NCBI RefSeq assembly: GCF_020734085.1
Contig: NZ_JAJAGH010000008.1
Span: forward strand, 5,743-69,742
DNA length: 64,000 bases
Direction of reading: 5' to 3'
DNA from: Hominibacterium faecale
Lineage (GTDB): Bacteria > Bacillota > Clostridia > Peptostreptococcales > Anaerovoracaceae
Of the stretch, positions 4,467 through 54,493 are shown piece by piece (the stretch's first letter is position 1; the number at the start of each line of letters is the position of its first letter). The position numbers and the translations under genes were made by a program. Below the pieces are notes generated by a model. It saw only the letters and a list, made by a program, of their open reading frames with translations, searched no databases and was not told where the DNA came from.

Positions 4467-4492
4467 AGAGTATAGCGTAATAACATGCAAAA

Positions 4493-4580: not shown

Positions 4581-4595
4581 ACCCGTTGCAACAGA

Positions 4596-34640: not shown

Positions 34641-34656
34641 TGGCATCATAGTTGCG
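34641..34656 (+). promoter_or_regulatory. sigma-54 promoter TGGCATcatagTTGCG (-24 GG / -12 GC)
   Basis: GG and GC dinucleotides at canonical spacing, about 65 nt upstream of the amidohydrolase start. Confidence 0.6.
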
Positions 34657-37782: not shown

Positions 37783-37798
37783 TGGCATACAATTTGCA
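37783..37798 (+). promoter_or_regulatory. sigma-54 promoter TGGCATacaatTTGCA
   Basis: Canonical -24 GG / -12 GC spacing, about 127 nt upstream of the GAPDH start. Confidence 0.55.
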
Positions 37799-37924
37799 AT
37801 ATATTAAGGTCAGTATATTATCAACAAGGACTCGGAGGCGCCGTTAATGCAGCTTGCAGATCATGCCATCTGCGGAGCTTTAAAAAAGGTGATTCCGGAA
37901 ATGAGTGAACGAGGAGGAGAAACA

Positions 37925-38947
37925 ATGACGAATGTATTAGTGGTGGGTTATGGAACAATTGGACAGAGGCTTGCCGACGGGGTTAGTCTGCAGGACGATA
38001 TGAATCTGATTGGAGTTGTGGACGCGGCAATGAGTCTGTCGATCAGGGCCCTGAAAGAAAAAGGCATGCCATATGATCTTTATGCAGTAAACGAAACGTG
38101 CCGGGCCGAGCTTGCAGCAAACGGGATTCCAGTCCGCGGACTTTTGGAGGAAGCACTTGAGAAAACAGACATTGTATTGGATGCGACATCCGCAGGTGTT
38201 GGTGCGAAAAATAAAGAGCAATATAAAAAATATGGGGTTAAAGCGGTCTTCCAGGGCGGCGAGAAAAATGATGTGGCAGATGTGTTTTTTCACGGATATG
38301 CCAACTATGAAAAAGGCCTCCATGCGGATTTCCTAAAGCTGACATCCTGCAACACAACCGGATTGATCCGGGCAGTAGACTGCCTCGATAAAAAATGCGG
38401 GATTGAGAAGGTCGCGATTACCATTGTACGGAGAGTTGCGGACCCGGGAGATTACCACAGAGGATTGACCAATGCGCTGCAGGTTGACAAAGCGCCCAAT
38501 CATCAGGCACTGGATCTGATGACGATTTTGCCGGAAATTAAAGCGACCGGAATCCTGGTGCACGCACCGGTAACCCATGGACACTTTATTACCGTAGTGG
38601 CAACACCGAAGAGAGATATATCAGTGAAGGAGGCAATCGATACATTCAAAGAGCACAACCGTATTCGCATGGTCAGACTGGATGAAGGATTTCAGGGCAA
38701 TGCTTCAATCTTCAAATACGCAAGAGATCTTGGAAGGCCAAGAGGCGATCTGTATGAAATCTGCATCTGGGAGGACACCATCGTAAAATCTGGTAAGGAT
38801 ATTATGTTTGGAATACATATTCCACAGGAATCGGTAACCATTCCTGAGACGATTGATGCGATTCGTGCGGCAATGGCCATGGATACAGACGGAAAAACAG
38901 CGGTGGAAAAGACCAACAAGAATCTTGGCCTGGGAGGATGGAAATGA
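37925..38947 (+). CDS. type II (archaeal-type) glyceraldehyde-3-phosphate dehydrogenase family protein
   Basis: Start at MTNVLVVGYGTIGQR (GAGGAGGAG RBS). SCNTTGL catalytic-Cys motif and overall collinearity with archaeal GAPDH (for example Methanothermus) rather than bacterial GapA. Confidence 0.75.
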   Translation: MTNVLVVGYGTIGQRLADGVSLQDDMNLIGVVDAAMSLSIRALKEKGMPYDLYAVNETCRAELAANGIPVRGLLEEALEKTDIVLDATSAGVGAKNKEQYKKYGVKAVFQGGEKNDVADVFFHGYANYEKGLHADFLKLTSCNTTGLIRAVDCLDKKCGIEKVAITIVRRVADPGDYHRGLTNALQVDKAPNHQALDLMTILPEIKATGILVHAPVTHGHFITVVATPKRDISVKEAIDTFKEHNRIRMVRLDEGFQGNASIFKYARDLGRPRGDLYEICIWEDTIVKSGKDIMFGIHIPQESVTIPETIDAIRAAMAMDTDGKTAVEKTNKNLGLGGWK

Positions 38948-40188
38948 TTAAATGGAAAACAGTGGACGATTATGATTATCGGAACAAAGTGACCTTGCTG
39001 CGAGTGGACATCAACTCTCCAATCCACCCAGGTACGAAGAAAATTGTAAACGAAAACAGGATTCATAAAAGCGCGCCAACCATCCAGAAGCTGTTAGATA
39101 AAGGTACGAAGCTGGTGATCATCGCGCACCAGGGGGATACGCTGGATTACGAAAACCTGATCCCTATGGAAGAACATGCTCAAAAGTTGAATCAATATAT
39201 AAACGGGAGTATCCGCTATATTGATGATCCCTGCGGTCCGGCAGCACAGGAAGAAATCCGAAAGCTGAAGGCTGGAGAAGGACTTTTACTGGGAAACTTG
39301 CGCTATCTTACTGAAGAGACTTCAACCTTTGAGAATGTGGTAAAGCTAAAGCCAGAATTGATGGAACAGACCTACCTGGTACGATCCCTGCTTCCTTTAT
39401 GTGATTATTATGTCAACGACGCCTTTTCCGCAGCCCATAGAAATGCACCTTCCATGGCTGCATTCCAGAGGCTTCTTCCTACGGCAGCAGGCGAGCTGAT
39501 GTGCCGGGAAGTTGAAGCGCTGGATCAGATTATTGAATCTCCGGACCACCCATGTCTGTTTGTGTTAGGAGGTGCAAAGATTTCCGATGCCTTTGGCATG
39601 ATGAAGCAAGTTCTGGAAACAGGCAAAGCGGATAAAATTCTTACTTGCGGAGTTACAGGTGAAATTATGCTGATGGCGAAAGGCTATTCATTGGGAGAAA
39701 AAAAGGAATTATTTATCCGCGAGCGGGGACTGGACCGTTTCGTACAGGAGGCAAGGCAATATCTTGATAAATACCCACAAAAGATCGATTATCCAGTTGA
39801 TGTGGTGTATGAAAGAAGCGGGGAACGCTGTACGCTGGACATTGACGAATTGCCCAAGTCAGAACTGTTTATGGACATTGGAGAAAAAACGATTGAGCAC
39901 TATCGACGAGAAATCATACAAGCAAAAACCATTTTTGTAAACGGACCTGCAGGCGCTTATGAAAATCCGCTTTTTGAAAGAGGAACGAAAGAAGTCTGGG
40001 AAGCGATTGCAGCTGCAAAAGGCTATTCTGTCATCGGAGGCGGCGACACCGTCAGTGCGGCGCAGCGCTATATTAATCTGGATGATATTGGTTATGTCTG
40101 CACTGCAGGAGGTGCGATGGTGAGGTATGTATCCGGGACAAAACTGCCTTTAATCGAGGCCATGGACGGTGCACAATCAAAAGGTTAA
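38944..40188 (+). CDS. phosphoglycerate kinase family protein (archaeal-type)
   Basis: RVDINSPI, VNDAFSAAHR and GGAKISDAFGM / GGGDT PGK motifs. The ATGA start overlaps the GAPDH stop. Confidence 0.75.
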   Translation: MIKWKTVDDYDYRNKVTLLRVDINSPIHPGTKKIVNENRIHKSAPTIQKLLDKGTKLVIIAHQGDTLDYENLIPMEEHAQKLNQYINGSIRYIDDPCGPAAQEEIRKLKAGEGLLLGNLRYLTEETSTFENVVKLKPELMEQTYLVRSLLPLCDYYVNDAFSAAHRNAPSMAAFQRLLPTAAGELMCREVEALDQIIESPDHPCLFVLGGAKISDAFGMMKQVLETGKADKILTCGVTGEIMLMAKGYSLGEKKELFIRERGLDRFVQEARQYLDKYPQKIDYPVDVVYERSGERCTLDIDELPKSELFMDIGEKTIEHYRREIIQAKTIFVNGPAGAYENPLFERGTKEVWEAIAAAKGYSVIGGGDTVSAAQRYINLDDIGYVCTAGGAMVRYVSGTKLPLIEAMDGAQSKG

Positions 40189-40219
40189 AAGAACAGAGAT
40201 TCTGGGAAAGGAAAACAAA

Positions 40220-41287
40220 ATGAATACATATAAAATTGCAGTAATCGGCGGAGACGGCGTAGGACCGGAAGTTTGCAGGGAAGGAAAAAAGGTTCTGCAT
40301 AAAATTGCAGAGCTGGATAAGGGCATCGGATTTGAATTTGAGGATTTCCCCTGGGGATGTGAATATTATCTGGAGCATGGTGAAATGATGCCGCAGGATG
40401 CCCTGGAGACTCTAAAAAAATTTGATGCCGTTTACTTGGGAGCAGTTGGATTTCCGGGGGTACCGGACCATATTTCTTTGTGGGATATTCTGCTGAAAAT
40501 CAGAAAAGGGTTTGATCAATATATCAACCTGCGGCCGATCAAGCTGCTGAAAGGAGCCCCATGTCCGCTTGCAGGTGTAAAGCGCGAGCAGATTGACATG
40601 CTGGTTGTGCGGGAAAACAGCGAAGGCGAATATGCAGGAAGCGGAAGCTGGATGTACAAGGGAAAAATCAACGAAGTGGTGATACAGGACAGTGTTTTTT
40701 CCAGACTGGGATGTGAAAGGGTGATTCGCTATGCGTATGAATTAGCAAAAAAAGAGAAGAAAACATTGACAAGCATTAGCAAAGCCAATGCACTTAATTA
40801 CTCCATGGTATTTTGGGATCAGATTTTTGAAGAGGTCGGACGGGAATACCCGGATGTGGAAACCTACTCCTATCTGGTGGATGCGGCAAGCATGTTTTTT
40901 GTAAAAGAACCTGAGCGGTTTCAGATCGTAGTAACGTCCAATTTGTTCGGAGATATTCTCACCGATTTAGGGGCAGCGATTGCGGGAGGTATGGGACTTG
41001 CCGCAGGGGCAAATATCAATCCGGAAAGGCTCTATCCGTCCATGTTTGAGCCGATCCACGGATCTGCGCCCGACATTGCGGGAACCGGGCAGGCAAATCC
41101 CCTTGCAGCGGTCTGGTCAGTCAGCCAGATGATGGACTTTTTCGGTTATGAGGAATGGGGAAAACGCATATTGGATGCCATTGAACAGCTTCTTACAGAA
41201 AAAAAGAGCCTGCCACGCGACTTAGGAGGGAGTTCGACAACAGAAGCTGTCGGAAATGAAATTGTGCGGCTGCTGGAACGGGCGTAA
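40220..41287 (+). CDS. tartrate dehydrogenase / D-malate / 3-isopropylmalate dehydrogenase-family decarboxylating dehydrogenase
   Basis: Start at MNTYKIAVIGGDGVGPEV. NLFGDILTDLGA signature. 355 aa. Confidence 0.7.
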   Translation: MNTYKIAVIGGDGVGPEVCREGKKVLHKIAELDKGIGFEFEDFPWGCEYYLEHGEMMPQDALETLKKFDAVYLGAVGFPGVPDHISLWDILLKIRKGFDQYINLRPIKLLKGAPCPLAGVKREQIDMLVVRENSEGEYAGSGSWMYKGKINEVVIQDSVFSRLGCERVIRYAYELAKKEKKTLTSISKANALNYSMVFWDQIFEEVGREYPDVETYSYLVDAASMFFVKEPERFQIVVTSNLFGDILTDLGAAIAGGMGLAAGANINPERLYPSMFEPIHGSAPDIAGTGQANPLAAVWSVSQMMDFFGYEEWGKRILDAIEQLLTEKKSLPRDLGGSSTTEAVGNEIVRLLERA

Positions 41288-41342: not shown

Positions 41343-42425
41343 CTAAGAATAAAAGACCCGCTGAAAAAGCTGATGTCTTCCGCTGATATCCAATTTCTGA
41401 TAGATATTGGATACATGCTTTTTTACGGTAGGCATACTGATTTGACATTGCTCCATGATTTCCGTATTGCTGAGGCCGTTTACCAGATACTGGAGCACTT
41501 CGTATTCCCGGAGGGTCAGGTGATTGGTCTCTTTGATGGAAAGAAGGATATTGTCGATGATGGTGGAATAGTCGTAAACACAGCAGGAGAAGGTCTGGTC
41601 AGAATCGTTGTAGCTGACGTTGACGTAATAGGACTTATCTTCCAGGTTGATTTTACTGTGGGTTTTCAAAGTTTCAGACACTTTGGAAGCGCCTCGGGCC
41701 GAGATTTCCTGCTTTAGCGTCTCGCACATGGCAGTAAACATATTCCGGATCGTATCCAGAGAGAGCTGAGAATGCAGGCCGGTGGTAATATTGGAATGCA
41801 TGATGTTCAGATCCCGGTCGTAAACCATGTACACCAGAATATTATCGTGAGAAAACATAGTATATTTGCTTTTATCCAGATTATGCTTTGCCTCACAAAC
41901 ATCCTGAACGATTCTGGACAAGTGCAGTTTGAACATTTTGATCAATTCCAGATCCTGCGCGGTAAAATCCTCAGATTGCTTTGACCGATGCAGCCCAATG
42001 CCGCAGACATATCCACTGGGGGAATTTTCCACAAAGAGATTGCCCTCGATGGAATAATACATATTGCAGGGCTTGAGGCATTCTTTAAAATAGCGGGTTT
42101 TCTCCCGCTCAGAGCGGGTAAAAATCTCCGAGCTTTTGAAGATGATGGGCTGTTTCAAAGAAACGATAGGCAGAGCATCGTCCATGTCACAGACCTTGAA
42201 ATAATAGTTCAGATCCTTTCCCCATCCGGCAAAGATAAAATTTTCAAATCGAATGCTGTTCTGCCCTTTTTTAAAAATATAAATATCGCCTTTTTCAAAG
42301 AAGCAAAGTTTCTTTAGTTCTTCAAGAAAGTGCTGCAAAGCGTCGATTTTATTGTATGCAACATATAAATCCGAAATCATTTTGTTAAACGTATAAAATT
42401 CATTTTCATTAAAGGTAAATGCCAT
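41343..42425 (-). CDS. LuxR-family transcriptional regulator with large N-terminal sensor domain
   Basis: C-terminal GerE/LuxR HTH (LTLREYEVLQYLVNGLSNTEI...). Start at MAFTF (AGGAAA RBS). Divergent from the GRE operon. Confidence 0.7.
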   Translation of the reverse strand: MAFTFNENEFYTFNKMISDLYVAYNKIDALQHFLEELKKLCFFEKGDIYIFKKGQNSIRFENFIFAGWGKDLNYYFKVCDMDDALPIVSLKQPIIFKSSEIFTRSEREKTRYFKECLKPCNMYYSIEGNLFVENSPSGYVCGIGLHRSKQSEDFTAQDLELIKMFKLHLSRIVQDVCEAKHNLDKSKYTMFSHDNILVYMVYDRDLNIMHSNITTGLHSQLSLDTIRNMFTAMCETLKQEISARGASKVSETLKTHSKINLEDKSYYVNVSYNDSDQTFSCCVYDYSTIIDNILLSIKETNHLTLREYEVLQYLVNGLSNTEIMEQCQISMPTVKKHVSNIYQKLDISGRHQLFQRVFYS

Positions 42426-42643
42426 AATATTTCCTCTGCATAACATTTAGCAAAAACAGACTGTATATTTATTATATTTGATTGTATTTGAAAAGTAAAT
42501 GTTCAATTCGGCAAGGTATACCAACGGCTACCATGGAAAAAATCCTACTGCAGAACAATTGTCAGAAAACTTGATCGGGTATATAGTTAATCTATACTTG
42601 GAAAAGACAAGACAACGGATAAAATGACGAAGGAAGGGAGTGA

Positions 42644-42916
42644 AAGAAAACGAATATAAAATTTAGAGCAGCCAGCCCGGCGATTACAGACGGCAGGCTG
42701 GCTGACAGATATGGGAGCTGGTCCAGAGAAGCTGAAATCGCCTATGGTATCCCGCTTACATCTTTTCCCCTCCGGTGGGAAGGGGTACCTGCGGGCACAA
42801 AGAGCTATGCGGTCATCTTTATGGATAACGACAACGCAAAAGGGGAAGGATTTCCTTTTATACATTGGCTGGCCTGCAACATTCCGGGGGAAATGACCGA
42901 GCTTTACTACGGATAG
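42644..42916 (+). pseudogene. truncated PEBP/YbhB-family gene remnant (no start codon, premature stop)
   Basis: Frame encodes ...PLRWEGVPAGTKSYAVIFMDNDNAKGEGFPFIHWLACNIPG, which matches the N-terminal half of YbhB. It ends 9 codons later, 21 nt before the GRE start. No ATG/GTG/TTG upstream in frame. Confidence 0.45.
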
Positions 42917-42937
42917 AAAGAGAAGGGAGCAAATCAC

Positions 42938-45343
42938 ATGAACACAGAAAACAGAACTTTTTCTTTAGAAGGGGAAAACCATTTCCCCAGAATTGAAAAG
43001 CTGATCGAAGACTACAGAAAAGCCCGGCCCAGCGTAGATATCGAGCGGGCCAGAATCTATACCGAGTCTTTCAAAGAAACAGAAGGGGAAGACATCATTA
43101 CCAGACGGGCCCAGGCCTTCAAGGATTACTGCGAGAAAAGAGAGATACGGATTGCAGACCACCAGCTGATTGCAGGCGATGTCGCCAGAATCCCCAGGGC
43201 TGGAGTTGTAGACCCGGTGTTTCACTGCGGCTGGCTCAGCGAAGAACTGGACACCATTTCCACAAGAAAACAGGATCCCTATTTCATTTCGGAAGAGGAT
43301 AAAAAAGAACTGCGGGAAACCATTTTTCCATATTGGAAAGGCAAAATTGTCAGCGAACTCTGGCTCCGCCAAATCCCGCCTTATGTAAGAGAAATGGCCG
43401 TCAAGACCGGCATCATCGACGTGGAGATCAAAACTCAGAGCGCGGCCGGAGAGACAGCTCCTTACTGGGAAAAGGCCATGAATACCGGCCTGGGACAGAT
43501 GGAAAAGGAGCTTGCGGAGGCCATCGACGCTCTGGATCCGATTGATCCGGAAAGCTATGAAAAAATTACGTTTTATAAAGCCTGTAAGATGACCTTAGAA
43601 GGCTTAAAGCATTATATCCTGCGGTTTGCCGGTCTGGCTGAAGAGCAGGCCGATCAGGCGGCAGGCAAAAGAAAGGAGGAGCTGGAACGCATTGCTGCCA
43701 ACTGCCGCTATCTTTCAGATAACAAACCAAAAACCTTCTGGCAGGGGCTGCAGCTTACTTACTTCATCCTGGCAGGCTGCATGATGGAAGGCAACGGCCC
43801 TTCCTATTCGCCGGGAAGAATGGACCAGTATCTGTATCCTCTGTACGCAAAGGATATGGAAGAAGGAAGACTGACGGATGCACAGACGCTGGAGCTGATC
43901 GAGGCATTCTATGTAAAGACAGCGGAATCCACTTGGTTTCTCAGTGCAAATGCGGCCATGTACTTTGCGGGATATCAGCCGTTTCACAGCATTATCGTAG
44001 GCGGGATTGACAAGAGGGGAAAGGATGCGACCAACCAGCTGTCCTACCTGTTTATCACAGCTAAAATGGATGTACAGCTTCACAGCCCCTCTCTGTGCGC
44101 CCGGGTACACCAGCAGTCGCCAGAGGAGCTGATTGCCCACATCGCCAAACTGGCCAGACTGGGAACCGGATTTCCGGCTATCTATAACGATGAAGTCGCC
44201 ATTAAGATGATGCTGCTGTCCGGAGGAACGATGGAAGAGGCCAGAGACTATCAGATGGTTGGGTGTGTTGAGCCGTTTATGGGCGGCAAGATGGCCAAAT
44301 GGTCAGACGGCGGCCACTACAACTATGCGGCGGCCATGGAATTCGTTCTCCATAACGGAAGAAGCATTATCAATGAGAACAAGCTGCTGGGTTTGGAAAC
44401 AGGTGATCCACAGGACATGACTTACGATGAAATCAAAGATGCGGTGAAACAGCAGCTCAAATATATGATCGAGTCCATCAGCATCTGCGCCAATGTCAAT
44501 GAGAAGGTCTGCGCAGAGCTGACACCGTACCCGTTTATTTCCACATTCCTGGAAGGGACGTTACATACAGGAAAAGATCTGACCCGGGGTGGTGTGAAAT
44601 ATACCATCGGACCGGCGCTGATCGGCACAGGCATTGCAGATCTGGTTAACTCGCTTTCCGCAATTAAGAAGCACGTCTTTGATGATAAGACGATTACTAT
44701 GGGTGAGTTGATCCAGGCACTGAAAGCAAATTTTGATGGTTATGAAAAAATCCGTCTCATGCTGCAGAATACAACGCCGATGTACGGAAATGACATTGAA
44801 GAGGTGGATGCGCTGGCAGGAGAAATGACTGATTACGCCTACAGTGTGATTTCCCAGTGCAAATCCTGGAGAGGTCCGCACTTTATTTCCGGTCTGTACC
44901 CGGTATCCTCACATGTTCCCCACGGACTGGTGGTAGGCGCTCTGCCTTATGGGCGGCTTTCAGGAAAGGCCCTTGCGGACGGATGCTTCCCAAATGGCGG
45001 AACCGACCACGAAGGACCAACTTCCGTATTAAAATCGGTTTCCAGAATCAATCACGAAGTCCATACCTCGGGCACCCTGCTGAATATGAAACTGGACCCT
45101 CAAAGTGTTTCGGGAGATTTGGGAATCAAGCGGATTTCCGACATCATCCGTACATTTGTAGACTTGAATATCTATCACATTCAGTTCAATGTAGTGAGCC
45201 GTGAGCTGCTGCGAGCAGCGCAGGACAAACCGGAAGAACACAAATCACTGATCGTGCGAGTAGCCGGATATAGCGCCTACTTCACGGAACTTTGTGAAGA
45301 AATGCAGGACGACATCATCAACAGAACCATACATCAGGCTTAA
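42938..45343 (+). CDS. glycyl radical enzyme, glycerol/diol-dehydratase-like clade (substrate unknown)
   Basis: 801 aa. VGCVEP Cys-loop. C-terminal glycine radical motif RVAGYSAYF. Block-by-block similarity to C. butyricum glycerol dehydratase as recalled, but the NGHS active-site stretch reads NGPS here. Confidence 0.85.
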   Translation: MNTENRTFSLEGENHFPRIEKLIEDYRKARPSVDIERARIYTESFKETEGEDIITRRAQAFKDYCEKREIRIADHQLIAGDVARIPRAGVVDPVFHCGWLSEELDTISTRKQDPYFISEEDKKELRETIFPYWKGKIVSELWLRQIPPYVREMAVKTGIIDVEIKTQSAAGETAPYWEKAMNTGLGQMEKELAEAIDALDPIDPESYEKITFYKACKMTLEGLKHYILRFAGLAEEQADQAAGKRKEELERIAANCRYLSDNKPKTFWQGLQLTYFILAGCMMEGNGPSYSPGRMDQYLYPLYAKDMEEGRLTDAQTLELIEAFYVKTAESTWFLSANAAMYFAGYQPFHSIIVGGIDKRGKDATNQLSYLFITAKMDVQLHSPSLCARVHQQSPEELIAHIAKLARLGTGFPAIYNDEVAIKMMLLSGGTMEEARDYQMVGCVEPFMGGKMAKWSDGGHYNYAAAMEFVLHNGRSIINENKLLGLETGDPQDMTYDEIKDAVKQQLKYMIESISICANVNEKVCAELTPYPFISTFLEGTLHTGKDLTRGGVKYTIGPALIGTGIADLVNSLSAIKKHVFDDKTITMGELIQALKANFDGYEKIRLMLQNTTPMYGNDIEEVDALAGEMTDYAYSVISQCKSWRGPHFISGLYPVSSHVPHGLVVGALPYGRLSGKALADGCFPNGGTDHEGPTSVLKSVSRINHEVHTSGTLLNMKLDPQSVSGDLGIKRISDIIRTFVDLNIYHIQFNVVSRELLRAAQDKPEEHKSLIVRVAGYSAYFTELCEEMQDDIINRTIHQA

Positions 45344-45360
45344 ATACAGGAGATTTGTCA

Positions 45361-46269
45361 ATGAAGGAAAAACGGACAGGGATTATCTTTAATACGCAGA
45401 AATTTTCCATACATGACGGCGGCGGGATACGGACCCTGATTTTTATGAAGGGCTGCCCGCTGCGGTGTATCTGGTGCAGCAATCCGGAATCCCAGAGGCC
45501 GGAGCCGGAGATCACAGATGTAAAAACCAATTGTATTGGCTGCGGAGACTGCGTTTGTGTATGTCCGAAGGAGGCAGTCAATCCGTTGACCTTTCAGATT
45601 GACCGGGGCAAGTGCGATGCCTGCGGCCTGTGCGCGAAAAGCTGCTACGCACAGGCTAAAAAGCTGACCGGTCAGGTAGTGACTGTGGAGGAGCTGGTGA
45701 ATATCGCTGTAAAGGATCAGGTCATATACCGGAATTCAGGCGGCGGTGTGACGGTCGGAGGCGGCGAGCCTCTGACCCAGCCGGACTTCGTTTACGAGTT
45801 TCTCCGTGCCTGCAGCATGCGCAACATCCATACGGCCATTGAAACCTGCGGCTTTGGAGACTGGTCTGAGGTGGAAAAGGTTTTTCACCAGGCCGATCAG
45901 ATTTTATTTGATTTGAAATGCATGGATGAGGAAAAGCATCGGGCGTATACTGGCGTAAGTAATAAAAGCATCCTGCTCAACGCAGAAAAGGCGGCGGCCT
46001 CAGGCAAAGAGATCCGCTTTCGGGTCCCGGTGATCCCAGGGGTAAACGACGGGGAGAATATACGGCAAACCGGAGCGTTTGTCCGTGGGCTGCAGAGGCA
46101 AAACAGTCAGGTGAAGGTTGAACTGCTGCCTTATCATAATTTTGGAAAAGACAAGTATAAATGGCTCGGCAGAAAGTATGATCTGGAGCCTTTAGAGCGT
46201 ATGGAAAAAGAGGAGTTGGGCCGATATTACAAGGTGTTGGAAGAATTGGACTGTAATGTCGTATATTAA
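45361..46269 (+). CDS. glycyl radical enzyme activating protein (radical SAM, with two extra ferredoxin-like clusters)
   Basis: CPLRCIWCSNPES radical-SAM motif. CIGCGDCVCVCP and CDACGLCAKSC motifs. AGGAG RBS. ATG at 45361. Confidence 0.85.
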   Translation: MKEKRTGIIFNTQKFSIHDGGGIRTLIFMKGCPLRCIWCSNPESQRPEPEITDVKTNCIGCGDCVCVCPKEAVNPLTFQIDRGKCDACGLCAKSCYAQAKKLTGQVVTVEELVNIAVKDQVIYRNSGGGVTVGGGEPLTQPDFVYEFLRACSMRNIHTAIETCGFGDWSEVEKVFHQADQILFDLKCMDEEKHRAYTGVSNKSILLNAEKAAASGKEIRFRVPVIPGVNDGENIRQTGAFVRGLQRQNSQVKVELLPYHNFGKDKYKWLGRKYDLEPLERMEKEELGRYYKVLEELDCNVVY

Positions 46270-46401: not shown

Positions 46402-47478
46402 CTATTTCACATAGGTCTCCATTGGGCGGATCATATAGTTGAGAGGGCCCATCTTATCGGTCGTAACATAGCCTGGCTCGGAGTTCATGACATCCGGTAT
46501 CCGGTTAACAACGGAAGCACAGGTAATGGCTACGGTGTCCGGTTTCTTTAATACGAAGTCCTGGGTCGGTTCTCCGTAAAGGGTCCATTTGATCAAATCC
46601 TCTTCGCCGGGAGCATATACTTTTCCCACACACTCGGTTTCCAGCGTGATGCCTTCTTCTGTAGTGGTAATCACCGTAGCGGAGAGCCCGACTGCATGGC
46701 CGGCGGGGATTTCTGTCTGCAGAACATCGGACCATAACGGCTGATCGCAGGTCTGAGGGATGAATTTCTGTTCCTGTGTCTTTACAGTCAATCCCAGCAG
46801 GGAACAGATCCAGCCGTTGGCATTCCACATGTAGCATGGAAGGAAATCTTCTGTTTCCAGTACTTCCTGTCTCTTTTCCTCAGAAATATTATTAACAGCG
46901 GCAATGGTCTTTTCAAATTCATCCAGCGACAGGTTGACGCCATGAACCTTGGCCAGGGCAACTCCGTAATCTTCCGAATTATATACAACAGAGCCTTTAA
47001 TTTTGGTGACTTTATTGGATGCCCCGGCGATGGTGGAAATAATGTATCCCCAGCCCATGTCCTGTGCTCCGGTCCCGCAGATGGTACAGTTGTTCTTTTT
47101 TGCAAGCTCATCGATTTCCTTTGTCATCTTATAGCGGGAGTTCCATGGATAAAAGGCCTCTTCACATGTGGAGATGGCATTAATGCCCAATTCCGCGCAG
47201 AGAAGGAAGATGTCCTGACAGTCGGGGAGAAGGGCCATGGTTTCAACAATGCATACATCCGGCTTAGTCTGGGTGAGGATCTGGCGGGCATCCTTGGCGT
47301 AGCTGACTTTAACGCCCTTGTTTTCTGTGCCCATGATCTCGCCAATATCTTTGCCAAAGGCGCGGTCGGATTTACCAAAAGCGCAGACCACCTCGCCACC
47401 ATGGTCATAGACATACTTCATAGTTGGACCAGCCATTTTTCCACTTCCATACTGAGCAACTTTTACTTTACGATTCAT
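46402..47478 (-). CDS. DapB-fold NAD(P)-dependent oxidoreductase, probable amine dehydrogenase (2,4-diaminopentanoate dehydrogenase-like family)
   Basis: N-terminal Rossmann motif KVAQYGSGKMAG. Architecture recalls native amine dehydrogenases. AGGAGG RBS. Last gene of the dehydratase operon. Confidence 0.5.
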   Translation of the reverse strand: MNRKVKVAQYGSGKMAGPTMKYVYDHGGEVVCAFGKSDRAFGKDIGEIMGTENKGVKVSYAKDARQILTQTKPDVCIVETMALLPDCQDIFLLCAELGINAISTCEEAFYPWNSRYKMTKEIDELAKKNNCTICGTGAQDMGWGYIISTIAGASNKVTKIKGSVVYNSEDYGVALAKVHGVNLSLDEFEKTIAAVNNISEEKRQEVLETEDFLPCYMWNANGWICSLLGLTVKTQEQKFIPQTCDQPLWSDVLQTEIPAGHAVGLSATVITTTEEGITLETECVGKVYAPGEEDLIKWTLYGEPTQDFVLKKPDTVAITCASVVNRIPDVMNSEPGYVTTDKMGPLNYMIRPMETYVK

Positions 47479-47552: not shown

Positions 47553-47897
47553 TTATAACGGATATAAGGGCAGCCCTTTCACGAGGCGGGCTGCATTTTG
47601 ACCAAAGATTCGCCCTTCCTTTTTCGTCAGAGCAGGCGGCCTCTTTTCCAGGATACAGGTCCCGGGCCCAGCCTTCTGATGCATGAGAAACACCTTCTCT
47701 TTTGATATTCCGATTGCAATGCCCACCTTGGAAGCCTGAGCTGAGCCAAAGGTGTGCTCGTTCAGAGCAGAGGCGGGCGCAAGGGTGCGGGTGCTGAACA
47801 AGCCTTCCTCCTCGATTCCGTACTCGATCTGCGTCACATAGCAGGATAGGGAGTCCTCGGTATAAAGCAGGTGGATTGCCGGGTATCGGTTATTCAT
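47553..47897 (-). CDS. diol/glycerol dehydratase reactivase small (beta) subunit
   Basis: Start at MNNRYPAIHLLY. EEEG and NAARLVKGLP blocks match DdrB/DhaG. Overlaps the alpha subunit stop by 8 nt. Confidence 0.7.
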   Translation of the reverse strand: MNNRYPAIHLLYTEDSLSCYVTQIEYGIEEEGLFSTRTLAPASALNEHTFGSAQASKVGIAIGISKEKVFLMHQKAGPGTCILEKRPPALTKKEGRIFGQNAARLVKGLPLYPL

Positions 47898-49782
47898 GGC
47901 CCCCTCCTTTTTGCGCTTTTGCTGCGCCATCTGGTTGGGGTGAAGACTTGCGGTCAAAGGCTTCTTCTTTCTGAAGGAATGCATAAAGCAGGCCGCTAGC
48001 AACCGCATTCCGCGGCCCCATGCACCCGCGAATATTGCCTTTCCCGCTGGTGATGCCATAGTAGGCCAAAACATCCGTCAGCATATTTGGGAGTTCAAAG
48101 TCCAGTGAAGAGCCACCGACCAGCACCACATGCTCGAATTCATGAAGGGTGCCTGTAGCAGAAACCTTCAACAATGCCCGAAGCACATTGTTGACAAAGA
48201 CCTTTCGTTTGATCTCTCTGCGGACGGAACGAACCTTTTCCAAAGAATGCCTGGTATTGATCGGCAGATATCCGTCCGGTTGAATGGACAAAAGTTTGGC
48301 GAAAAAGTCACTGTGGAGCGGCTCTTTGAAAAACTCCACACTTCCGTCTTCGTGGCGCAGGTGAAACAGGGACTCGGCTCTTGCCAGAGGATATTTTTTG
48401 ATGGCTTCCGCTTCTTCTCTGGAAGAAAGGCCCAGCTCTGCCTGGATCAGCTCGGTCACCATGTTGCCCGCGCCAGCCAGGTGGATGGTCTTTTTCTGGC
48501 CATCACTGTGAAGATAACAGGAATCCGTAGATCCGGCGCCAATATCAACAACCAGGATGGGCGTTCCGCTTCCCGGCGTCGTGAGGGTTCCAAGGACTGC
48601 CATATCTCCCTCGACACCGCCGATCTCCGTGGGGCAGCCGACTGTTTCCTCCAGTAGAGCCGCCAGGTGCTGCATGTGCAGCTTTTGGGTCTTTACCATG
48701 GCCGCGATGCCGACGGATTTTTCCATATAAAACTCATTGGCCAAGGAGCCGATCACATTTTGCGGCACCAAAGTGTCTACGGCCATCAGATCCTGAATAA
48801 AGATGGAATCTTCCGGCGTATCGGTGACTTGAGCCATCTTTTTGCGAACCGACTCCAGCATACCGCCGACATTCGTACCGCTGCTGCCGTGGACATCACG
48901 AATCGAACCGGCACGTTTCACCTGATCCATAATTTTTTGGGCACCGTCGTCCACGTTGACCCGGTACTGCTGCCTCTGTCCGTCGATGATGATTTCGCCC
49001 GCCGGGATGATCCGTTCATGGATGCTGCCGGAAGGCGTTTTGATGACAACGGCAGAGCGGTTGCCGATCAGCGCTTTGGCAATATGGATTACATGCTTTG
49101 TCTCCGCAGAAGAGAGAGAAAAGGCGGTCGCAATGCCATAGGGGTTGGTGAGAAAGTCGATCGACGCACCCGGCCTTGCCACCTCTACGGCACACAGATA
49201 ATCCACCGGAACCTTATCGATGAGGGAGACCTCATCCACGATGGGAAGGGTTTCCGAAAGCCGATTGCAGATCAGCACCCCGTCATCATTTTGGACGATC
49301 AGTCCTTTGATGGAATAACCATCTTCAATGGCCAGATTAACCTCCCTGGCTGCGGTAATAAAGTCGTGCTCCTCTGAAATAATAACGATATGCGGCTTTT
49401 GTTTATCTGCTGCGGGAAGATCCTCCAAAAATACGGTGTAGCCGATGCCAAGACCAAGGCCACCGGGAGTGTCCGGGTTGTGGCCAATCATGGCAGATTC
49501 GGTAATGACCGTCTGAGTGATCGTTTCCATGGCAAAATCACCGATCACAGGAGTTGCCTCGTTAATACGGATCAGATCCAGAGAAGACAGCGGGATATCC
49601 ATATCCGCACAGGCTTCTTTTAGAGAATTGATCATTCCGTAAAGGTTGTCTTTTGTACCTTTGATACCGGTTGTTTTTGTTATTCCGCTGGTGCAGCGAA
49701 GCAGCCGCCCATCCTGGATCTTGCCCAGAGCAGTTTCGGTGGTAGCATTTCCGATATCGATACCAGCTACATAAGTGATCAT
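47890..49782 (-). CDS. diol/glycerol dehydratase reactivase large (alpha) subunit
   Basis: MITYVAGIDIGNATTE N-terminus typical of DdrA/DhaF. 630 aa. Confidence 0.8.
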   Translation of the reverse strand: MITYVAGIDIGNATTETALGKIQDGRLLRCTSGITKTTGIKGTKDNLYGMINSLKEACADMDIPLSSLDLIRINEATPVIGDFAMETITQTVITESAMIGHNPDTPGGLGLGIGYTVFLEDLPAADKQKPHIVIISEEHDFITAAREVNLAIEDGYSIKGLIVQNDDGVLICNRLSETLPIVDEVSLIDKVPVDYLCAVEVARPGASIDFLTNPYGIATAFSLSSAETKHVIHIAKALIGNRSAVVIKTPSGSIHERIIPAGEIIIDGQRQQYRVNVDDGAQKIMDQVKRAGSIRDVHGSSGTNVGGMLESVRKKMAQVTDTPEDSIFIQDLMAVDTLVPQNVIGSLANEFYMEKSVGIAAMVKTQKLHMQHLAALLEETVGCPTEIGGVEGDMAVLGTLTTPGSGTPILVVDIGAGSTDSCYLHSDGQKKTIHLAGAGNMVTELIQAELGLSSREEAEAIKKYPLARAESLFHLRHEDGSVEFFKEPLHSDFFAKLLSIQPDGYLPINTRHSLEKVRSVRREIKRKVFVNNVLRALLKVSATGTLHEFEHVVLVGGSSLDFELPNMLTDVLAYYGITSGKGNIRGCMGPRNAVASGLLYAFLQKEEAFDRKSSPQPDGAAKAQKGGGHE

Positions 49783-49794
49783 AGGCTGCTCCTT

Positions 49795-50217
49795 TTACCG
49801 GTTGTGCTTGAGGCGGTTGCTGTCTTGCAGGATTTCGCCTGCCTCCCGGACGAACTGAGCGGTCTCAGCGGCTCCGTATTTGTTTTCCAAAGCATCGGCA
49901 ACCGCTAAAATGTCTTCCATTTCACTACGGAAAGGGCGAATAGTGTTATAGACTTCCAAAATATAGTCATCGGGAACATTGGTCAGCTCCGCCGCGCGCC
50001 GCAGATTGGCCGCAATCTGAATATCGCCTGCCGACTGGGCGATTTCGGCCTGCATCAGCAAGGTGTCCTTGTGGATCTTTCCGTCCTCCATTTTGACCGT
50101 CCCTGCCAGAACGTTTTCCATGGTCAGTTGGCCTATGGGTCTTCCGGACATGGCTTTCAGTTTGTCAGGGTGCTTTTCCAGGAGTGGATAATCGGTTTTG
50201 TAATTTAAGGTATTCAT
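49795..50217 (-). CDS. B12-dependent diol/glycerol dehydratase small (gamma) subunit
   Basis: DYPLLEKHPD and RRAAELTNVPDDYILEVYNTIRPFRS match PddC/DhaB3. Confidence 0.8.
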   Translation of the reverse strand: MNTLNYKTDYPLLEKHPDKLKAMSGRPIGQLTMENVLAGTVKMEDGKIHKDTLLMQAEIAQSAGDIQIAANLRRAAELTNVPDDYILEVYNTIRPFRSEMEDILAVADALENKYGAAETAQFVREAGEILQDSNRLKHNR

Positions 50218-50241: not shown

Positions 50242-52467
50242 TTATATAAAAGAGACTTCAAGCTCTACCGGTTTGATGTTTTTGATCTGAGCTGTTTCGT
50301 GGTTGTGAAGAAGGGTTGTTTTCAACATATAAAATCTCGTGCTGCTGTCGATATCGCCGGGAAGCGGTTCAGGGCTTTCCCCTTTTGCGTATTTGGCCGC
50401 ATTTTTTCCGATAGCCCGGTAGGTTTTTTTGTCATAAAGCGGCGACTGAGGGAAAAGCTCCAGATTGTCCAAAGGTACCAGATCTTTTTGATGGATCACC
50501 GTAGTCCCTCTTGACTGGATACCGATGCTGATGCCTGAGCCGCTCAGCCTGGAACCTGCGCTGCTGATTACAGCCAGATCAGAGGAGCTGTAGCATTTGA
50601 TAAAGCGCGGTTTCATGCCTTCCTCTTCGATGCCGGCAGCAAGCTCGCGGAGCACGATTTCATGGGGGAGGTCTACGATGGTCTTTCGCTGCTGCTGCCC
50701 AAAGCTTGGAGAAACTGCAATAACAACTTCATCTGGATTTGTACCAGGAGCGGCAGGGCCGCATTCGGTGATGCCATTGATGTAGGATTCATCCCTGGAG
50801 TCGATAAAGTCATCTGTGGAAACAGCGCCCATGTGCTGCTGCATCTGATCCCACCGCGCATCCGAGATCTGATAGCCGGTCGTCGGTCCGGCATAGTCGT
50901 TTTCGTTATTGATCGCGCTTATCACGTGGAAGTTTTCGTCAAAGATTGCAGAGGTGTGCAGATAGTCTCCTGCCACGCGCTGCTTGAGCATGGTCAGGAT
51001 GTTTTCTGCAAGCTCCTCGTATCCGGCCTGGTACAAAACCTTCACAATATCAAAACCATTAAAATCGCTTTCCATAATGTGGGTAGCCGCTTTTATGTCT
51101 TCTGCAACGTTTCTCTTTGGCATATCGGAAGATTTGTAGGCGTAAACAGCAGCCTCTACTTCTTCATCGGTGATCTCAGGAAAATCCATCGCGTAGAACA
51201 GTGCCTGCATAGCCTGGGCTGCTTTGCGGCGATGAGCAATTACCTCCTCATTGCTGACTGGATGCAGTGCTCCATCTACCTTCATATCGCGCTGAACCAT
51301 ATAATAGTTGGCGTAGTTATCGCAGTCCATGGTGCTGGCGGAGAAGGTGTTGTCGCAGTTGGGAATAGAGGCATACCCGGAGGTGACCAGATCGGTGCCG
51401 GGCAGCATCTGCATCAGTAGCTTGGACATGCTGCGAGCCAGAGAGTGGGAAAAATAGGTGTCGTTACCAGAGGCTACTTCCAGTCCCAGCATAGAGGTCA
51501 GCAGATTTTCTGCGGCAACAGCCCGAAGCCCTGAGGGCATGGACGAGGATAGGGGCAGTCCGTCGATAGAACCGTTCTGCGTGCCCTGGGAGCCGCCAGC
51601 TTTTACCATCCAGACACAGCGCGCTTCCAGATACAGCATGGATTTTCCTTCCGCATAGCCCATCATGACCTCAGAGCCGGTACCAGAGGAAAAACGCATT
51701 TTCATACCCCGGGCGGCGTAGGCGGATGCCAGGAAAGATTTTGACCAGGGAGTATCATCTCCGTCAGACATGACCGCCTCGGTACCATATACGGAAACGG
51801 TTTCTGCGTAAGAGGTGAAGCCCTTCATGCCGATCTTCAATTCGGTGGCTTCCTCCAGGGAACACTGGGTGATAACGCCTGGGCGGCCGACCTGGCTTCC
51901 GATCATCAGCGCAATCGCGTTGAGCGGTGCGCAGCGAGTCACACTGCAGGTAGTCTCCAGTTCGGCAAAACCGCGGAGGGCAGCTTCGGCGGCATCGGCA
52001 GCCATCAGTACCGGATTGTCCAGCAGGTTGGTCACATGGGCCTGATTGGCCGGACTTTTTCTGGCTCGCATTTTCATTTGTGCCATCATGATTTCCACAA
52101 CGTTCATTTTGCTGACCACATCGACCAGTTTGGCAGGAGTCAGGCCGGAGGCAATCTTCAAAAGGTCACGTCTTGAAACGTTGATATCTACCAGCATCTT
52201 TGCGATTTCCGCGGAATCAAGGGCCATAGAGGTTTCCGCCTCAGAGACATTGATTCCATATTTAACAATAAATTTGTCGATAAAGTCAAATTCATCCCTG
52301 GTTTTTCCATCCATCTCCACAATCTGGCCATCTATGATTTTAATGCTGGGGCGAGGGTCGTTGGGGCTGTCCAGTGCGACTAAACCGACTGCAGGATCCT
52401 CCCACGCGATAACATCTTGGGTTACAGGGGCCTGCTCATATTTTTGTCTTCGTTTTGTTGATTTCAT
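50242..52467 (-). CDS. B12-dependent diol/glycerol dehydratase, fused large+medium (alpha-beta) subunit
   Basis: 741 aa. SPNDPRPSIKI, QCSLEEATELKIGM, TSYAETVSVYGTE and GDDTPWSK are collinear with Klebsiella PddA. The C-terminal 190 aa (EVVIAVSPSFG...) is beta-subunit-like. Confidence 0.85.
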   Translation of the reverse strand: MKSTKRRQKYEQAPVTQDVIAWEDPAVGLVALDSPNDPRPSIKIIDGQIVEMDGKTRDEFDFIDKFIVKYGINVSEAETSMALDSAEIAKMLVDINVSRRDLLKIASGLTPAKLVDVVSKMNVVEIMMAQMKMRARKSPANQAHVTNLLDNPVLMAADAAEAALRGFAELETTCSVTRCAPLNAIALMIGSQVGRPGVITQCSLEEATELKIGMKGFTSYAETVSVYGTEAVMSDGDDTPWSKSFLASAYAARGMKMRFSSGTGSEVMMGYAEGKSMLYLEARCVWMVKAGGSQGTQNGSIDGLPLSSSMPSGLRAVAAENLLTSMLGLEVASGNDTYFSHSLARSMSKLLMQMLPGTDLVTSGYASIPNCDNTFSASTMDCDNYANYYMVQRDMKVDGALHPVSNEEVIAHRRKAAQAMQALFYAMDFPEITDEEVEAAVYAYKSSDMPKRNVAEDIKAATHIMESDFNGFDIVKVLYQAGYEELAENILTMLKQRVAGDYLHTSAIFDENFHVISAINNENDYAGPTTGYQISDARWDQMQQHMGAVSTDDFIDSRDESYINGITECGPAAPGTNPDEVVIAVSPSFGQQQRKTIVDLPHEIVLRELAAGIEEEGMKPRFIKCYSSSDLAVISSAGSRLSGSGISIGIQSRGTTVIHQKDLVPLDNLELFPQSPLYDKKTYRAIGKNAAKYAKGESPEPLPGDIDSSTRFYMLKTTLLHNHETAQIKNIKPVELEVSFI

Positions 52468-52620: not shown

Positions 52621-52635
52621 GCAAATTTTATGCCA
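52621..52635 (-). promoter_or_regulatory. sigma-54 promoter (minus strand: TGGCATaaaatTTGC)
   Basis: Plus strand reads GCAAattttaTGCCA. Lies about 155 nt upstream of the dehydratase start. Confidence 0.55.
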
Positions 52636-52758: not shown

Positions 52759-54195
52759 ATGGAAAAAAAACATTCAGAGAAAAGCAGTTCGCCATGTGAA
52801 ACATGCCGCCATTATGAAGAAAAACGAATGGATATCTTGTTCGAAGTTATGGATAATGAGAATGATGTGACCTTAGCGGACGGGAAGGGCGTTGTGCTGA
52901 GAGTCAGCGATTCCTACGAAGACCATTTCGGTCTGAAGAAAGAGGAAATTATAGGTAAAACCGTGTGGGAGCTGGAGGATATGGGGGTCTTTAAGCCGTC
53001 GGTAACTGCTGCTGTTTTGGAAAAGAAGAAAAACACCACCATTATGCAGAAGAACAAACAGGGGCGGGATGTACTGACTACTGGTGTTCCTGTTTTCGGA
53101 AAAGATGGAGAAATCGCATATGTAGTCAGCTTTAATTCGATTCATATTGCAGGCGTTACGAGCCTGCAGAGCCAATATGAACAGTTAAACACAATGATGC
53201 AAGCGTATAATCAGGAAATCAATAAGCTTCGATTAAGAGATTTGAGAGAAAAGAAATTTATCAAAAAGAGTAAGAGTATGGAAAATATCAGCGAATTGAT
53301 TTCGCAGATTGCGGATACAAACGCGTCCGTATTGATTACAGGAGAAACGGGTGTGGGAAAAAGTATGGTTGCCAAGCTCATTCATGAAAACAGCAACCGT
53401 TCAGAAGGCCCTTTTGTGGAGATCAACTGCGGGACAATTCCTGAAAATTTAATCGAATCCGAACTGTTCGGCTATGAAAAAGGATCCTTTACAGGAGCCA
53501 ACAGCAAAGGGAAAATAGGAAAAATAGAGCTGGCAAAAGGAGGAACTTTGTTCCTGGACGAAATCGGCGAAATCTCGCTCAATCTGCAAATTAAATTTCT
53601 GCAGGTCATACAGGAAAAATTGATAACAAGAGTAGGTGGACTTAGTAAAATCGAGGTGGATTTCCGTCTGATCACCGCGACGAACCGCGACCTGGAAGAC
53701 GATATTCATCGGGGGCTCTTTCGGGAGGATTTGTTTTATCGTCTGAATGTAATACCAATTCATATTCCGCCTCTGCGCGAACGCAGGGAAGATGTCCTGC
53801 CGTTGATTTTGAATGCTTTGGAACGGTTTAATTCTCAATATGGAAGACATATAAAATTGTCGGCAGATGCCCTTCAGATATTGGAACGGCAGACGTGGCC
53901 CGGGAACATCCGCCAGATAGAAAATCTGGTTGAACGGATGGTCGTTACTTCCAGGGGCGAGCTAATAAGGATAGAAGACCTGCCTGCTGACTTGGAATGG
54001 GAGACCATGCAGCAGACGCCGGAAACAACGGGACAGCTGAAAGAACGGCTAGAAAATTATGAACGCAACATCTTTATCGATGCCTTTAAGGAACATCAGT
54101 CAAGCGTAGCAGTGGGAAAAGCCTTGGGAATCAGTCAGACAACGGCTGCGAGAAAGCTGCGTAAGTATATTCCGGGATATGCAAATTTGAACTAG
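52759..54195 (+). CDS. sigma-54-dependent transcriptional activator (PAS, AAA+, HTH)
   Basis: GETGVGKS Walker A, GSFTGA, ESELFGYEKGSFTGA, C-terminal HTH. AGGAGG RBS. Confidence 0.85.
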   Translation: MEKKHSEKSSSPCETCRHYEEKRMDILFEVMDNENDVTLADGKGVVLRVSDSYEDHFGLKKEEIIGKTVWELEDMGVFKPSVTAAVLEKKKNTTIMQKNKQGRDVLTTGVPVFGKDGEIAYVVSFNSIHIAGVTSLQSQYEQLNTMMQAYNQEINKLRLRDLREKKFIKKSKSMENISELISQIADTNASVLITGETGVGKSMVAKLIHENSNRSEGPFVEINCGTIPENLIESELFGYEKGSFTGANSKGKIGKIELAKGGTLFLDEIGEISLNLQIKFLQVIQEKLITRVGGLSKIEVDFRLITATNRDLEDDIHRGLFREDLFYRLNVIPIHIPPLRERREDVLPLILNALERFNSQYGRHIKLSADALQILERQTWPGNIRQIENLVERMVVTSRGELIRIEDLPADLEWETMQQTPETTGQLKERLENYERNIFIDAFKEHQSSVAVGKALGISQTTAARKLRKYIPGYANLN

Positions 54196-54477: not shown

Positions 54478-54493
54478 TGGCGCGAACCTTGCA
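54478..54493 (+). promoter_or_regulatory. sigma-54 promoter TGGCGCgaaccTTGCA
   Basis: Canonical GG/GC spacing, about 60 nt upstream of the permease start. Confidence 0.55.

Follow-up and report, generated by a model that had tools for sequence, protein, structure and literature searches.

Glycyl radical enzymes (GREs) of the 1,2-eliminase class are defined by a CxE motif, in which a Glu lies two residues past the catalytic Cys (PMC13450708). CutC is listed as the only C-N-cleaving enzyme among these eliminases, and whole GRE clades are still unassigned (PMC13450708, a 2026 review). In glycerol dehydratase (GD), His164 is the general acid that is proposed to protonate the leaving hydroxyl (PMC13450708). 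The equivalent position, the β1 site, is Asp216 in CutC, His160 in HypD, and Gln193 in IslA, and in all three this residue contacts the substrate; a charge-balancing Arg serves the carboxylate or sulfonate substrates (Arg156 in HypD, Arg189 in IslA), and Tyr208 of CutC is a substrate-binding residue (PMC8473560). In HypD, Asp278 is both essential and catalytic (PMC7077986). The GRE considered here is encoded by Hominibacterium faecale, a human-gut member of the Anaerovoracaceae, within a stretch of 64,000 nt from contig NZ_JAJAGH010000008.1 (the whole of this stretch is called the window). Its gene (42938-45343, + strand; WP_148395960.1) specifies 801 aa and is followed on the same strand by the gene for a radical-SAM activase (45355-46269). 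A LuxR-type regulator gene lies upstream, and a B12-dependent dehydratase (WP_148395955.1) is encoded nearby. As judged from sequence comparison, the GRE is a member of a discrete clade that has no characterised member, and it is not of the GD type.

The GRE and its activase are shown, by their predicted residues, to constitute an intact radical 1,2-eliminase pair with a full catalytic set. As a preliminary description of this DNA had pointed out, the GRE contains the Cys loop VGCVEP (Cys443 and Glu445) and the glycine-radical motif RVAGYSA (Gly777). Its PFL-like and Gly_radical domains, with 644 bits to PF02901 and 102 bits to PF01228, are those of the superfamily. Cys443 aligns with Cys433 of GD and Cys489 of CutC, and Glu445 of the CxE loop GCVEP is present in all 115 of 115 clade members, as in the 1,2-eliminase class. 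The activase, also correctly recognised at the outset as the GRE's own, matches the model of the glycyl-radical enzyme activating protein family, TIGR02494, at 338.7 bits (cutoff 174). It has Radical_SAM and Fer4 domains, a CxxxCxxC motif, and a ferredoxin-like insert bearing two Cys-rich cluster motifs; its translation probably starts at an ATG at 45361.

The preliminary description had called the GRE a dehydratase-clade enzyme that is globally similar to GD. However, its identity to GD (38.9%), CutC (38.7%), HpyG (39.7%), and HpzG (38.5%) is about equal, with 38.4% to 1,2-propanediol dehydratase (PD) and 33.1% to HypD. HMMER bit scores against the PDB run from HpyG (604) through CutC (598) and HpzG (571) to GD (555); the entries 8id1 and 8iof have been identified as HpyG and HpzG (PMC13450708). 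The sole NCBIfam model passed is the generic PFL2-3 subfamily TIGR01774 (686 bits, cutoff 678). No NCBIfam equivalog model is reached, and each function-specific model falls short by hundreds of bits, including TIGR04394 for CutC (652.6 bits, cutoff 1050), NF043068 for hydroxyproline-type dehydratases (571 bits, cutoff 1100), and NF048011 for the C-S lyases IslA, IseG, and HpsG (627 bits, cutoff 1000). In a database of 5.8 billion proteins, about 118 clusters lie at 53-99% identity to the GRE, none of them functionally named; the top match is 99% identical, and both H. faecale and Ihubacter massiliensis are annotated in matching 90%-identity protein clusters. Among species-representative genomes the identity of the matches steps down from 53% to 47%, with all further ones at no more than 44%, a gap that sets the clade apart. 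A literature search returned no paper on the function of the clade, on a GRE amino-alcohol lyase, or on the GREs of Hominibacterium or Ihubacter. A neighbour-joining tree (774 columns, 50 bootstraps) recovers the clade itself at 100% and places it in a 100%-bootstrap group with CutC, the sole characterised member of that group, and two further clades that are likewise uncharacterised. HpyG/HpzG and HypD are not in this group, while GD, PD, and 9rco make up a separate 100% clade that is outermost among the eliminases. Rough as it is, the tree gives no support to the "dehydratase clade" label.

The residues of the substrate pocket were compared in an alignment of the window GRE and 115 clade members with GD, PD, 9rco, HypD, HpyG, HpzG, and K. 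pneumoniae CutC, with the reference sequences drawn from PDB-search alignments. The columns of this alignment are validated because the known CutC pocket residues Tyr208, Asp216, Phe395, Thr502, and Tyr506 are reproduced by way of the Cys489 offset. For GD, a sequence of C. butyricum DhaB1 served as the query, and the PDB sequence search matched it to 1r8w over residues 1-787 of 787 (1804 bits). The preliminary description had given NGHS for a stretch of GD and NGPS for its counterpart in the window, and on both counts it was right: IESNGHSISPARFDQ of 1r8w is Asn279-Gly280-His281-Ser282 in the alignment, and EGNGPSYSPGRMDQ of the window is Asn286-Gly287-Pro288-Ser289. Within the clade, Pro288 is found in 111 and Ser289 in 113 of the 115 members. 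The most telling substitution by this alignment, which the preliminary description missed, is the replacement of GD His164 by Glu172, an invariant residue that the window protein shares with all 115 of the 115 clade members; in addition, Asn156 is replaced by Ile164 and His446 by Ser456. Tyr339 becomes Phe349, Phe450 becomes His460, and Ser642 becomes Val656, while Ser282, Cys433, Glu435, Asp447, and Tyr640 are kept as Ser289, Cys443, Glu445, Asp457, and Tyr654. Asn156, His281-Ser282, Asp447, and Tyr640 reportedly have roles in the GD pocket. Thus, the active-site residues of GD are not all kept, and a substrate other than that of GD, as had been suggested from the NGPS stretch, is almost certain.

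These substitutions also bear on the idea closest to the starting point of the preliminary description, that the GRE is a plain B12-independent glycerol/1,2-propanediol dehydratase with a drifted motif. The identity of about 39% to GD, the GCVEP loop, the conserved equivalents of Ser282, Asp447, and Tyr640, the iron-dependent alcohol dehydrogenase (Fe-ADH) genes found beside relatives, and the adjoining diol dehydratase would all fit it, and the window activase shares its two ferredoxin motifs with those of GD (1r8w) and PD (5i2a). However, the general acid has given way to an invariant Glu, and His281, Asn156, and His446 have all changed. Only 5-7 of 17 pocket positions agree with the pattern of true GD/PD relatives, TGN[YF]HHS[YF]QCEQHDFY[SV] (7 for PD, 5 for GD), and GD and PD are the most distant eliminases in the tree. 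Drift is ruled out because the clade matches CutC in age and in degree of conservation. A plain diol dehydratase is consequently very improbable.

The remaining pocket residues of the window GRE are Asp161, Glu163, and Ser168. Asp161 and Asp457 are invariant in the clade, position 163 is Glu or Asp in nearly all members, and Asp161 is also Asp in CutC. The 17-position pocket signature, DEITEPSFHCEFSDHYV, is near-constant from 100% down to about 45% identity, with Thermoleophilia and a deltaproteobacterial metagenome-assembled genome deviating at just two to four positions. It is clearly unlike the pockets of CutC (DSYQDTGFICEQTSYLI), GD (TGNYHHSYQCEQHDFYS), and HpyG (YNRAEASFQCENTSDLV), and by this comparison the predicted clade pocket is shown to be distinct from that of each characterised GRE. 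At the site of the essential Asp278 of HypD the window GRE has Pro288, and at the site of HypD Arg156 it has Ser168, which argues against a hydroxyproline-type enzyme. Likewise, Arg189 and Gln193 of IslA correspond to Ser168 and Glu172, which argues at these two sites against sulfonate binding. An Arg does occupy the anion-anchoring site in HpyG and HpzG, and at the HypD counterion site these enzymes have Arg158/Arg154 and Arg157/Lys153, respectively; the window has Ser168, which is invariant in the clade, and Ile164.

The closest comparison is with CutC (PDB 5fau, 5a0u), which belongs to the same superfamily, shares the GCVEP loop, and is the nearest characterised neighbour in the tree. Both enzymes have an acidic β1 residue (Asp216 in CutC, Glu172 in the window), an Asp at GD position 153, a cation-π Phe (CutC Phe395, which is Phe340 in HypD and Phe349 in the window), and a Ser or Thr at the Thr502 position (Ser456 in the window), and both are without an anion-anchoring Arg. 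However, the trimethylammonium cage of CutC is missing: Tyr208 is replaced by Ile164, and Tyr506, which we take to be part of the cage, is replaced by His460. Ser503 has become Asp457, a Leu has become Tyr654, and Thr334-Gly335 has become Pro288-Ser289; in addition, the window GRE is without microcompartment genes. The hydrogen-bond acceptors of such a pocket would suit a primary or less-substituted ammonium over a quaternary one.

Two other sets of GREs have pockets related to these. Those of Desulfovibrio spp. (loci L021, L022, L024, L025, and L027 in our numbering of relatives' loci) are an unassigned sister clade of the window clade, with the pocket DDVIDGGFQCEQSSHYV; they share with it the acidic β1 site and the equivalents of His450 and Tyr640. 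Enterobacterial CutC-like GREs of Citrobacter pasteurii (L034), Enterobacter pasteurii (L039), and Franconibacter helveticus (L040) have the pocket DTITDTGFICEQTSYLI, in which the choline-binding Tyr208 of the CutC pocket is Ile and the adjoining Gln is Thr. By their residues, these may be CutC relatives for another amine substrate.

From the acidic pocket, the cation-π Phe, and the lack of an anion-anchoring Arg, we infer a cationic, amine-bearing substrate that has neither a carboxylate nor a sulfonate. It is thus likely, in our judgement, that the window GRE is no glycerol or diol dehydratase but an eliminase whose substrate is a small alcohol with a cationic amine. This substrate would most probably be a vicinal amino-alcohol, either ethanolamine itself or a near C3 relative (serinol or an aminopropanol, for example). 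The narrower proposal that we favour, namely that the GRE is a C-N lyase for such an ethanolamine-type amino-alcohol, has in our estimate slightly less than an even chance of being correct.

If the enzyme works by analogy with CutC and GD, the activase would generate a radical at Gly777, the thiyl radical of Cys443 would then remove H from the carbinol carbon, and deprotonation of the hydroxyl by Glu445 would give a ketyl radical. The vicinal ammonium, which Glu172, Ser289, and Asp457 would hold in place on Phe349, would be expelled as NH3 or an amine, and the product radical would regain H from Cys443 to yield an aldehyde. Reduction or oxidation of the aldehyde could then fall to enzymes whose genes lie elsewhere or, in relatives, close by (an Fe-ADH or aldehyde oxidoreductases). 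Should the proposal hold, the net reaction would by analogy be the same as that of EutBC, the B12-dependent ethanolamine ammonia-lyase, although the fold and cofactor of EutBC are unrelated to those of a GRE.

An aldehyde product, which is also the likely point in common with GD and PD, agrees with the surroundings of the gene in several of the 19 distinct loci of clade members examined. In L023, where the pocket is near-identical, genes for a tungsten aldehyde:ferredoxin oxidoreductase and a ferredoxin directly follow the GRE-activase pair. L016 encodes a molybdenum aldehyde oxidoreductase, and the equivalent position of L017 is taken by a large ORF homologous to it; both of these loci also encode a class-III aminotransferase, and an Fe-ADH gene is present in L090 and L091. 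These recurrent aldehyde-handling neighbours point to an aldehyde, and an aldehyde in turn points to H abstraction at a primary carbinol carbon and departure of the substituent of the adjacent carbon, the pattern seen in GD, PD, CutC, and IslA. YtcJ-type amidohydrolases are encoded in L009 and near the window GRE, and no genes of a carboxylate-type pathway are conserved across the 19 loci. EutH, the transporter family of EutBC systems, is encoded at three of the 19 (Zhenpiania hominis, L011, and L090). Ethanolamine is classically carried by two transporters, EutH and the APC protein Eat (PMC6620236). The window permease is of the APC family but is not an Eat orthologue (92 bits, cutoff 382).

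An Ord-like amine dehydrogenase is encoded in four loci including the window: in L004/L005 (where it is 87% identical) it adjoins the GRE-activase pair, in L006 it is close to that pair, and in L089 it belongs to the dehydratase operon. The window gene (46402-47478, - strand), an NAD(P)-dependent homologue in the 2,4-diaminopentanoate-dehydrogenase family with a DAP_DH_C domain, is a paralogue, scoring 105 bits against NF040740 (cutoff 400). The gene faces the GRE operon in convergent orientation and closes the B12 dehydratase string. Such Ord-like paralogues (L004 13602-14678 and 18269-19345, L006 5488-6573, L089 1-1011) are often accompanied by YtcJ-type amidohydrolases and MFS transporters. 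GREs of a second clade, likewise uncharacterised and with their own activase, are often in tandem with those of the window clade (L010 7463-9886, L013 3761-6202, L016 13392-15821, L017 13423-15852, and L091 12908-15340); the pocket of this second clade reads FD.SE.SF.CEN.ERVV, in which the His164 site is Glu and GD position 450 is Arg. A small gene upstream of the GRE in L006 and L013 encodes a cupin, and its sub-threshold resemblance to EutQ (E 0.019) was not used as evidence.

Several observations weigh against cleavage of a C-N bond in an ethanolamine-type substrate. Glu172 is uninformative on C-N versus C-O cleavage because the dehydratases HpyG and HpzG also have Glu at this site, and the retention of Ser289, Asp457, and Tyr654 is at least as compatible with a polyol-like substrate of three carbons as with ethanolamine. 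The GD equivalents of these three residues are said to bind the C2 and C3 hydroxyls of glycerol. The transporters vary between loci, with NCS1 in five, APC permeases in two, MFS in two, and a Liv-type ABC system in Desulfobacterales, besides EutH; NCS1 carriers typically move N-heterocycles. The Ord-like amine dehydrogenase and the class-III aminotransferase would be superfluous if the GRE removed the sole amine. Unlike in most ethanolamine and choline systems, neither microcompartment shell genes nor an acetaldehyde dehydrogenase gene is present beside the GRE, and no eut microcompartment, EutE, or EutBC genes occur in the roughly 37 kb of window DNA annotated for domains (28.8-56 kb plus ten ORFs elsewhere). 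Finally, the tree is a rough one, in which the internal nodes are weak (30-56%).

The NCS1 carriers lead to another candidate reaction, that of a HypD/HpyG-like dehydratase acting on a carboxylate-free hydroxylated N-heterocycle (a hydroxypyrrolidine or hydroxypiperidine) and giving a cyclic imine equivalent to an amino-aldehyde. In keeping with this, NCS1 is the commonest transporter of the relatives' loci, HpyG is the top single PDB match, the β1 Glu is common to the window GRE, HpyG, and HpzG, and the Phe packing residue is shared with HpyG and HypD. The neighbouring genes could also fit a route from 4-aminobutanal through γ-aminobutyrate (GABA) to 4-hydroxybutyrate in amine-fermenting Anaerovoracaceae. 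However, HpyG (8id1), HpzG (8iof), and HypD (6vxc) have GCVET loops, whereas the window has the GCVEP found in GD, PD, and CutC; the essential Asp of HypD is Pro288; all three enzymes lie outside the group of CutC and the window clade; and the EutH neighbours would be left unexplained. We regard a heterocycle dehydratase as improbable.

The partner of the GRE, the B12-dependent dehydratase, is encoded on the - strand as a small subunit (49795-50217) and a fused large and medium subunit (50242-52467), followed on the same strand by a diol-dehydratase reactivase with a large subunit at 47890-49782 (TIGR04491, 876 bits) and a small subunit at about 47553-47897, the extent of the latter being set by DNA alignment to L089. 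Profile matches of the reactivase are to DDR, DDR_swiveling, and Dehydratase_MU. The dehydratase scores 873 bits against NF011979 (cutoff 788) and, when aligned to the enzymes of K. pneumoniae and K. oxytoca (9vi2 and 1dio; K. oxytoca numbering is used), retains Gln141, His143, Glu170, Glu221, Gln296, Asp335, Ser362, and Phe374, all of which except Phe374 are reportedly catalytic or Ca-binding. The canonical Ser301 and Gln336 are absent, being Asp and Thr in the window and L089, and Asn and Thr in L090 and L091. These two positions are said, from mutagenesis, to line the C3 side of the substrate, and the residues found suggest that the substrate of the variant may not be a simple diol. The Asp/Asn301-Thr336 subfamily travels with a PEBP/YbhB gene, also where there is no GRE (L092, L093), and it is often found with a σ54 activator and an APC permease.

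The preliminary description had drawn attention to this neighbour, and the pairing is both real and non-random. In L089, whose GRE is 76% identical, the window gene set recurs in another order: dehydratase α-β, γ, reactivase α, β, PEBP, and Ord-like genes form a one-strand string that is divergent from the genes for a σ54 activator, an APC permease, the GRE, and the activase, the last two directly following the permease. In L090 (78%), the genes for an Fe-ADH, dehydratase α-β and γ, reactivase α/β, PEBP, the GRE, the activase, and EutH lie on one strand, effectively as one operon because the gaps are only -43 to +60 bp. In L091 (73%), the order is GRE, activase, NCS1, LuxR, a second activase and GRE, and Fe-ADH, and then the dehydratase. 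An accidental adjacency in the window was therefore rejected, and chance co-location is implausible because the four arrangements differ. The first five relatives' loci examined have a GRE without a B12 dehydratase, and L094 has no dehydratase at its GRE locus.

Directly upstream of the window GRE, an 85-codon PEBP/YbhB-family remnant that lacks a start codon (42659-42916, + strand) matches PF01161 (E 5.6e-14) over profile positions 8-61 of 135, and aligns at 57% identity with residues 18-98 of the full-length PEBP of L090 (186 aa), whose gene lies between the B12 reactivase and the GRE. The window dehydratase operon is without the intact PEBP gene that relatives carry between the reactivase β and Ord-like genes. 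The remnant looks like a rearrangement scar from an L090-like ancestor. The family name, phosphatidylethanolamine-binding protein, was given no weight as an argument for ethanolamine.

In a subset of species, the variant B12 module would belong to the same physiological process as the GRE, either by converting a related diol that feeds the same aldehyde pool or by providing a second route for the same compound. The pairing invites the main rival reading of the GRE, in which it cleaves a C-O bond as a dehydratase and its substrate, a vicinal diol or hydroxy-amine bearing an amine (such as a 3-amino-1,2-diol), is also that of the variant B12 enzyme. The locus would then encode one isoenzyme that depends on B12 and one that does not, which would amount to a backup for cofactor supply or oxygen; a backup tied to cofactor availability had been raised in the preliminary description. 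Both enzymes are indeed altered towards acidic or polar residues at positions on the C3 side of the substrate: Ser301 to Asp or Asn and Gln336 to Thr in the B12 enzyme, with the GRE retaining Asp457 and Tyr654 and lacking equivalents of Asn156 and His281. A Glu at the His164 site would fit dehydration, given HpyG and HpzG; in L090 both enzymes are packed on one strand with a single transporter; and the amine dehydrogenase, class-III aminotransferase, and aldehyde oxidoreductases would have an amino-aldehyde to handle. A cobalamin riboswitch is the usual signature of B12-independent back-up enzymes; however, none was found in the window, L089, L090, L091, or L004, upstream of either set of genes. 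In addition, 15 of the 19 relatives' loci have a GRE with no B12 enzyme within 10 kb, the PEBP-linked B12 variant occurs without a GRE in L092 and L093, and the two gene sets of the window converge and differ in their type of regulator. Natural amino-diols of the 3-amino-1,2-diol kind are not known to be abundant, and we consider this shared-substrate dehydratase rather unlikely. An extension of the C-N lyase proposal, in which the clade would be the first GRE ammonia- or amine-lyase for primary amino-alcohols and would stand, in human-gut Anaerovoracaceae, beside the previously unrecognised PEBP-associated B12 dehydratase variant in a two-radical-enzyme catabolic island, is offered only tentatively.

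The GRE and B12 dehydratase sets of the window appear to be separately controlled. Upstream of the GRE there are only σ70-like sites and the LuxR gene (41343-42446, - strand). Its product has an N-terminal GAF or autoinducer-binding-like sensor, a second α/β domain, and a C-terminal LuxR/GerE helix-turn-helix (HTH; aa 309-361), in line with the divergent LuxR regulator with a large sensor of the preliminary description, the sensor region being about 300 aa. With all 30 homologues at about 360 aa, translation probably begins at Met8 (42425). These 30 are the only members of the family in the database, and a homologue lies beside the GRE in 10 of the 19 loci. A one-component regulator of this GAF-LuxR kind, sensing a small ligand, probably governs GRE expression; among the repeats and inverted repeats searched for between the LuxR gene and the GRE, none was convincing as an operator. 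The B12 dehydratase gene has, 154 bp upstream, a σ54 -24/-12-like element, TGGCAT-N5-TTGC (52621-52635, - strand), and close by are genes for a PrdR-like σ54 activator (52759-54195, + strand) and the APC-family amino-acid/amine permease (54552-55925, + strand). Across the window, six σ54-like elements were found against 4.8 expected, a count that is not above chance.

Four of these six sites (34641-34655, 37783-37797, 52621-52635 on the - strand, and 54478-54492) lie just upstream of operon starts, namely those of an amidohydrolase-MFS operon, a GAPDH-like/PGK/Iso_dh trio, the B12 dehydratase, and the APC permease, and σ54 activator genes are near them (33016-34425 and 52759-54195); their placement is suggestive. 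The trio (37847-41287, + strand) encodes a GAPDH-like dehydrogenase (DapB_N), a phosphoglycerate-kinase homologue, and an isocitrate/isopropylmalate-dehydrogenase-family enzyme. It is operon-like, ends 56 bp from the LuxR gene, and may be a carboxylate-activation and reduction module. The sole Rfam match in the window is a tetrahydrofolate (THF) riboswitch at 4486-4590 (+ strand, 88.7 bits).

Since unassigned GRE clades are common, a new one is in itself of limited surprise. What stands out as unusual here is a CutC-like acidic pocket without the trimethylammonium cage, together with a recurrent and sometimes operonic pairing with a variant B12 radical dehydratase. GRE eliminases of the gut repeatedly control chemistry relevant to the host (trimethylamine from choline, hydrogen sulfide from isethionate, and the use of hydroxyproline), and the clade is present in human-gut isolates, namely H. 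faecale/I. massiliensis, Zhenpiania hominis, and Brotomerdimonas butyrica. The pocket yields a testable prediction, namely that a cationic amino-alcohol is turned into an aldehyde. Should ethanolamine or a near analogue prove to be the substrate, a B12-independent route would be added to a well-studied gut nutrient pathway, and the enzyme would be the second C-N-cleaving GRE after CutC and a B12-independent counterpart of ethanolamine ammonia-lyase. The pairing of a GRE with a variant B12 radical dehydratase is unusual, and it offers a natural system for asking why two radical solutions coexist.

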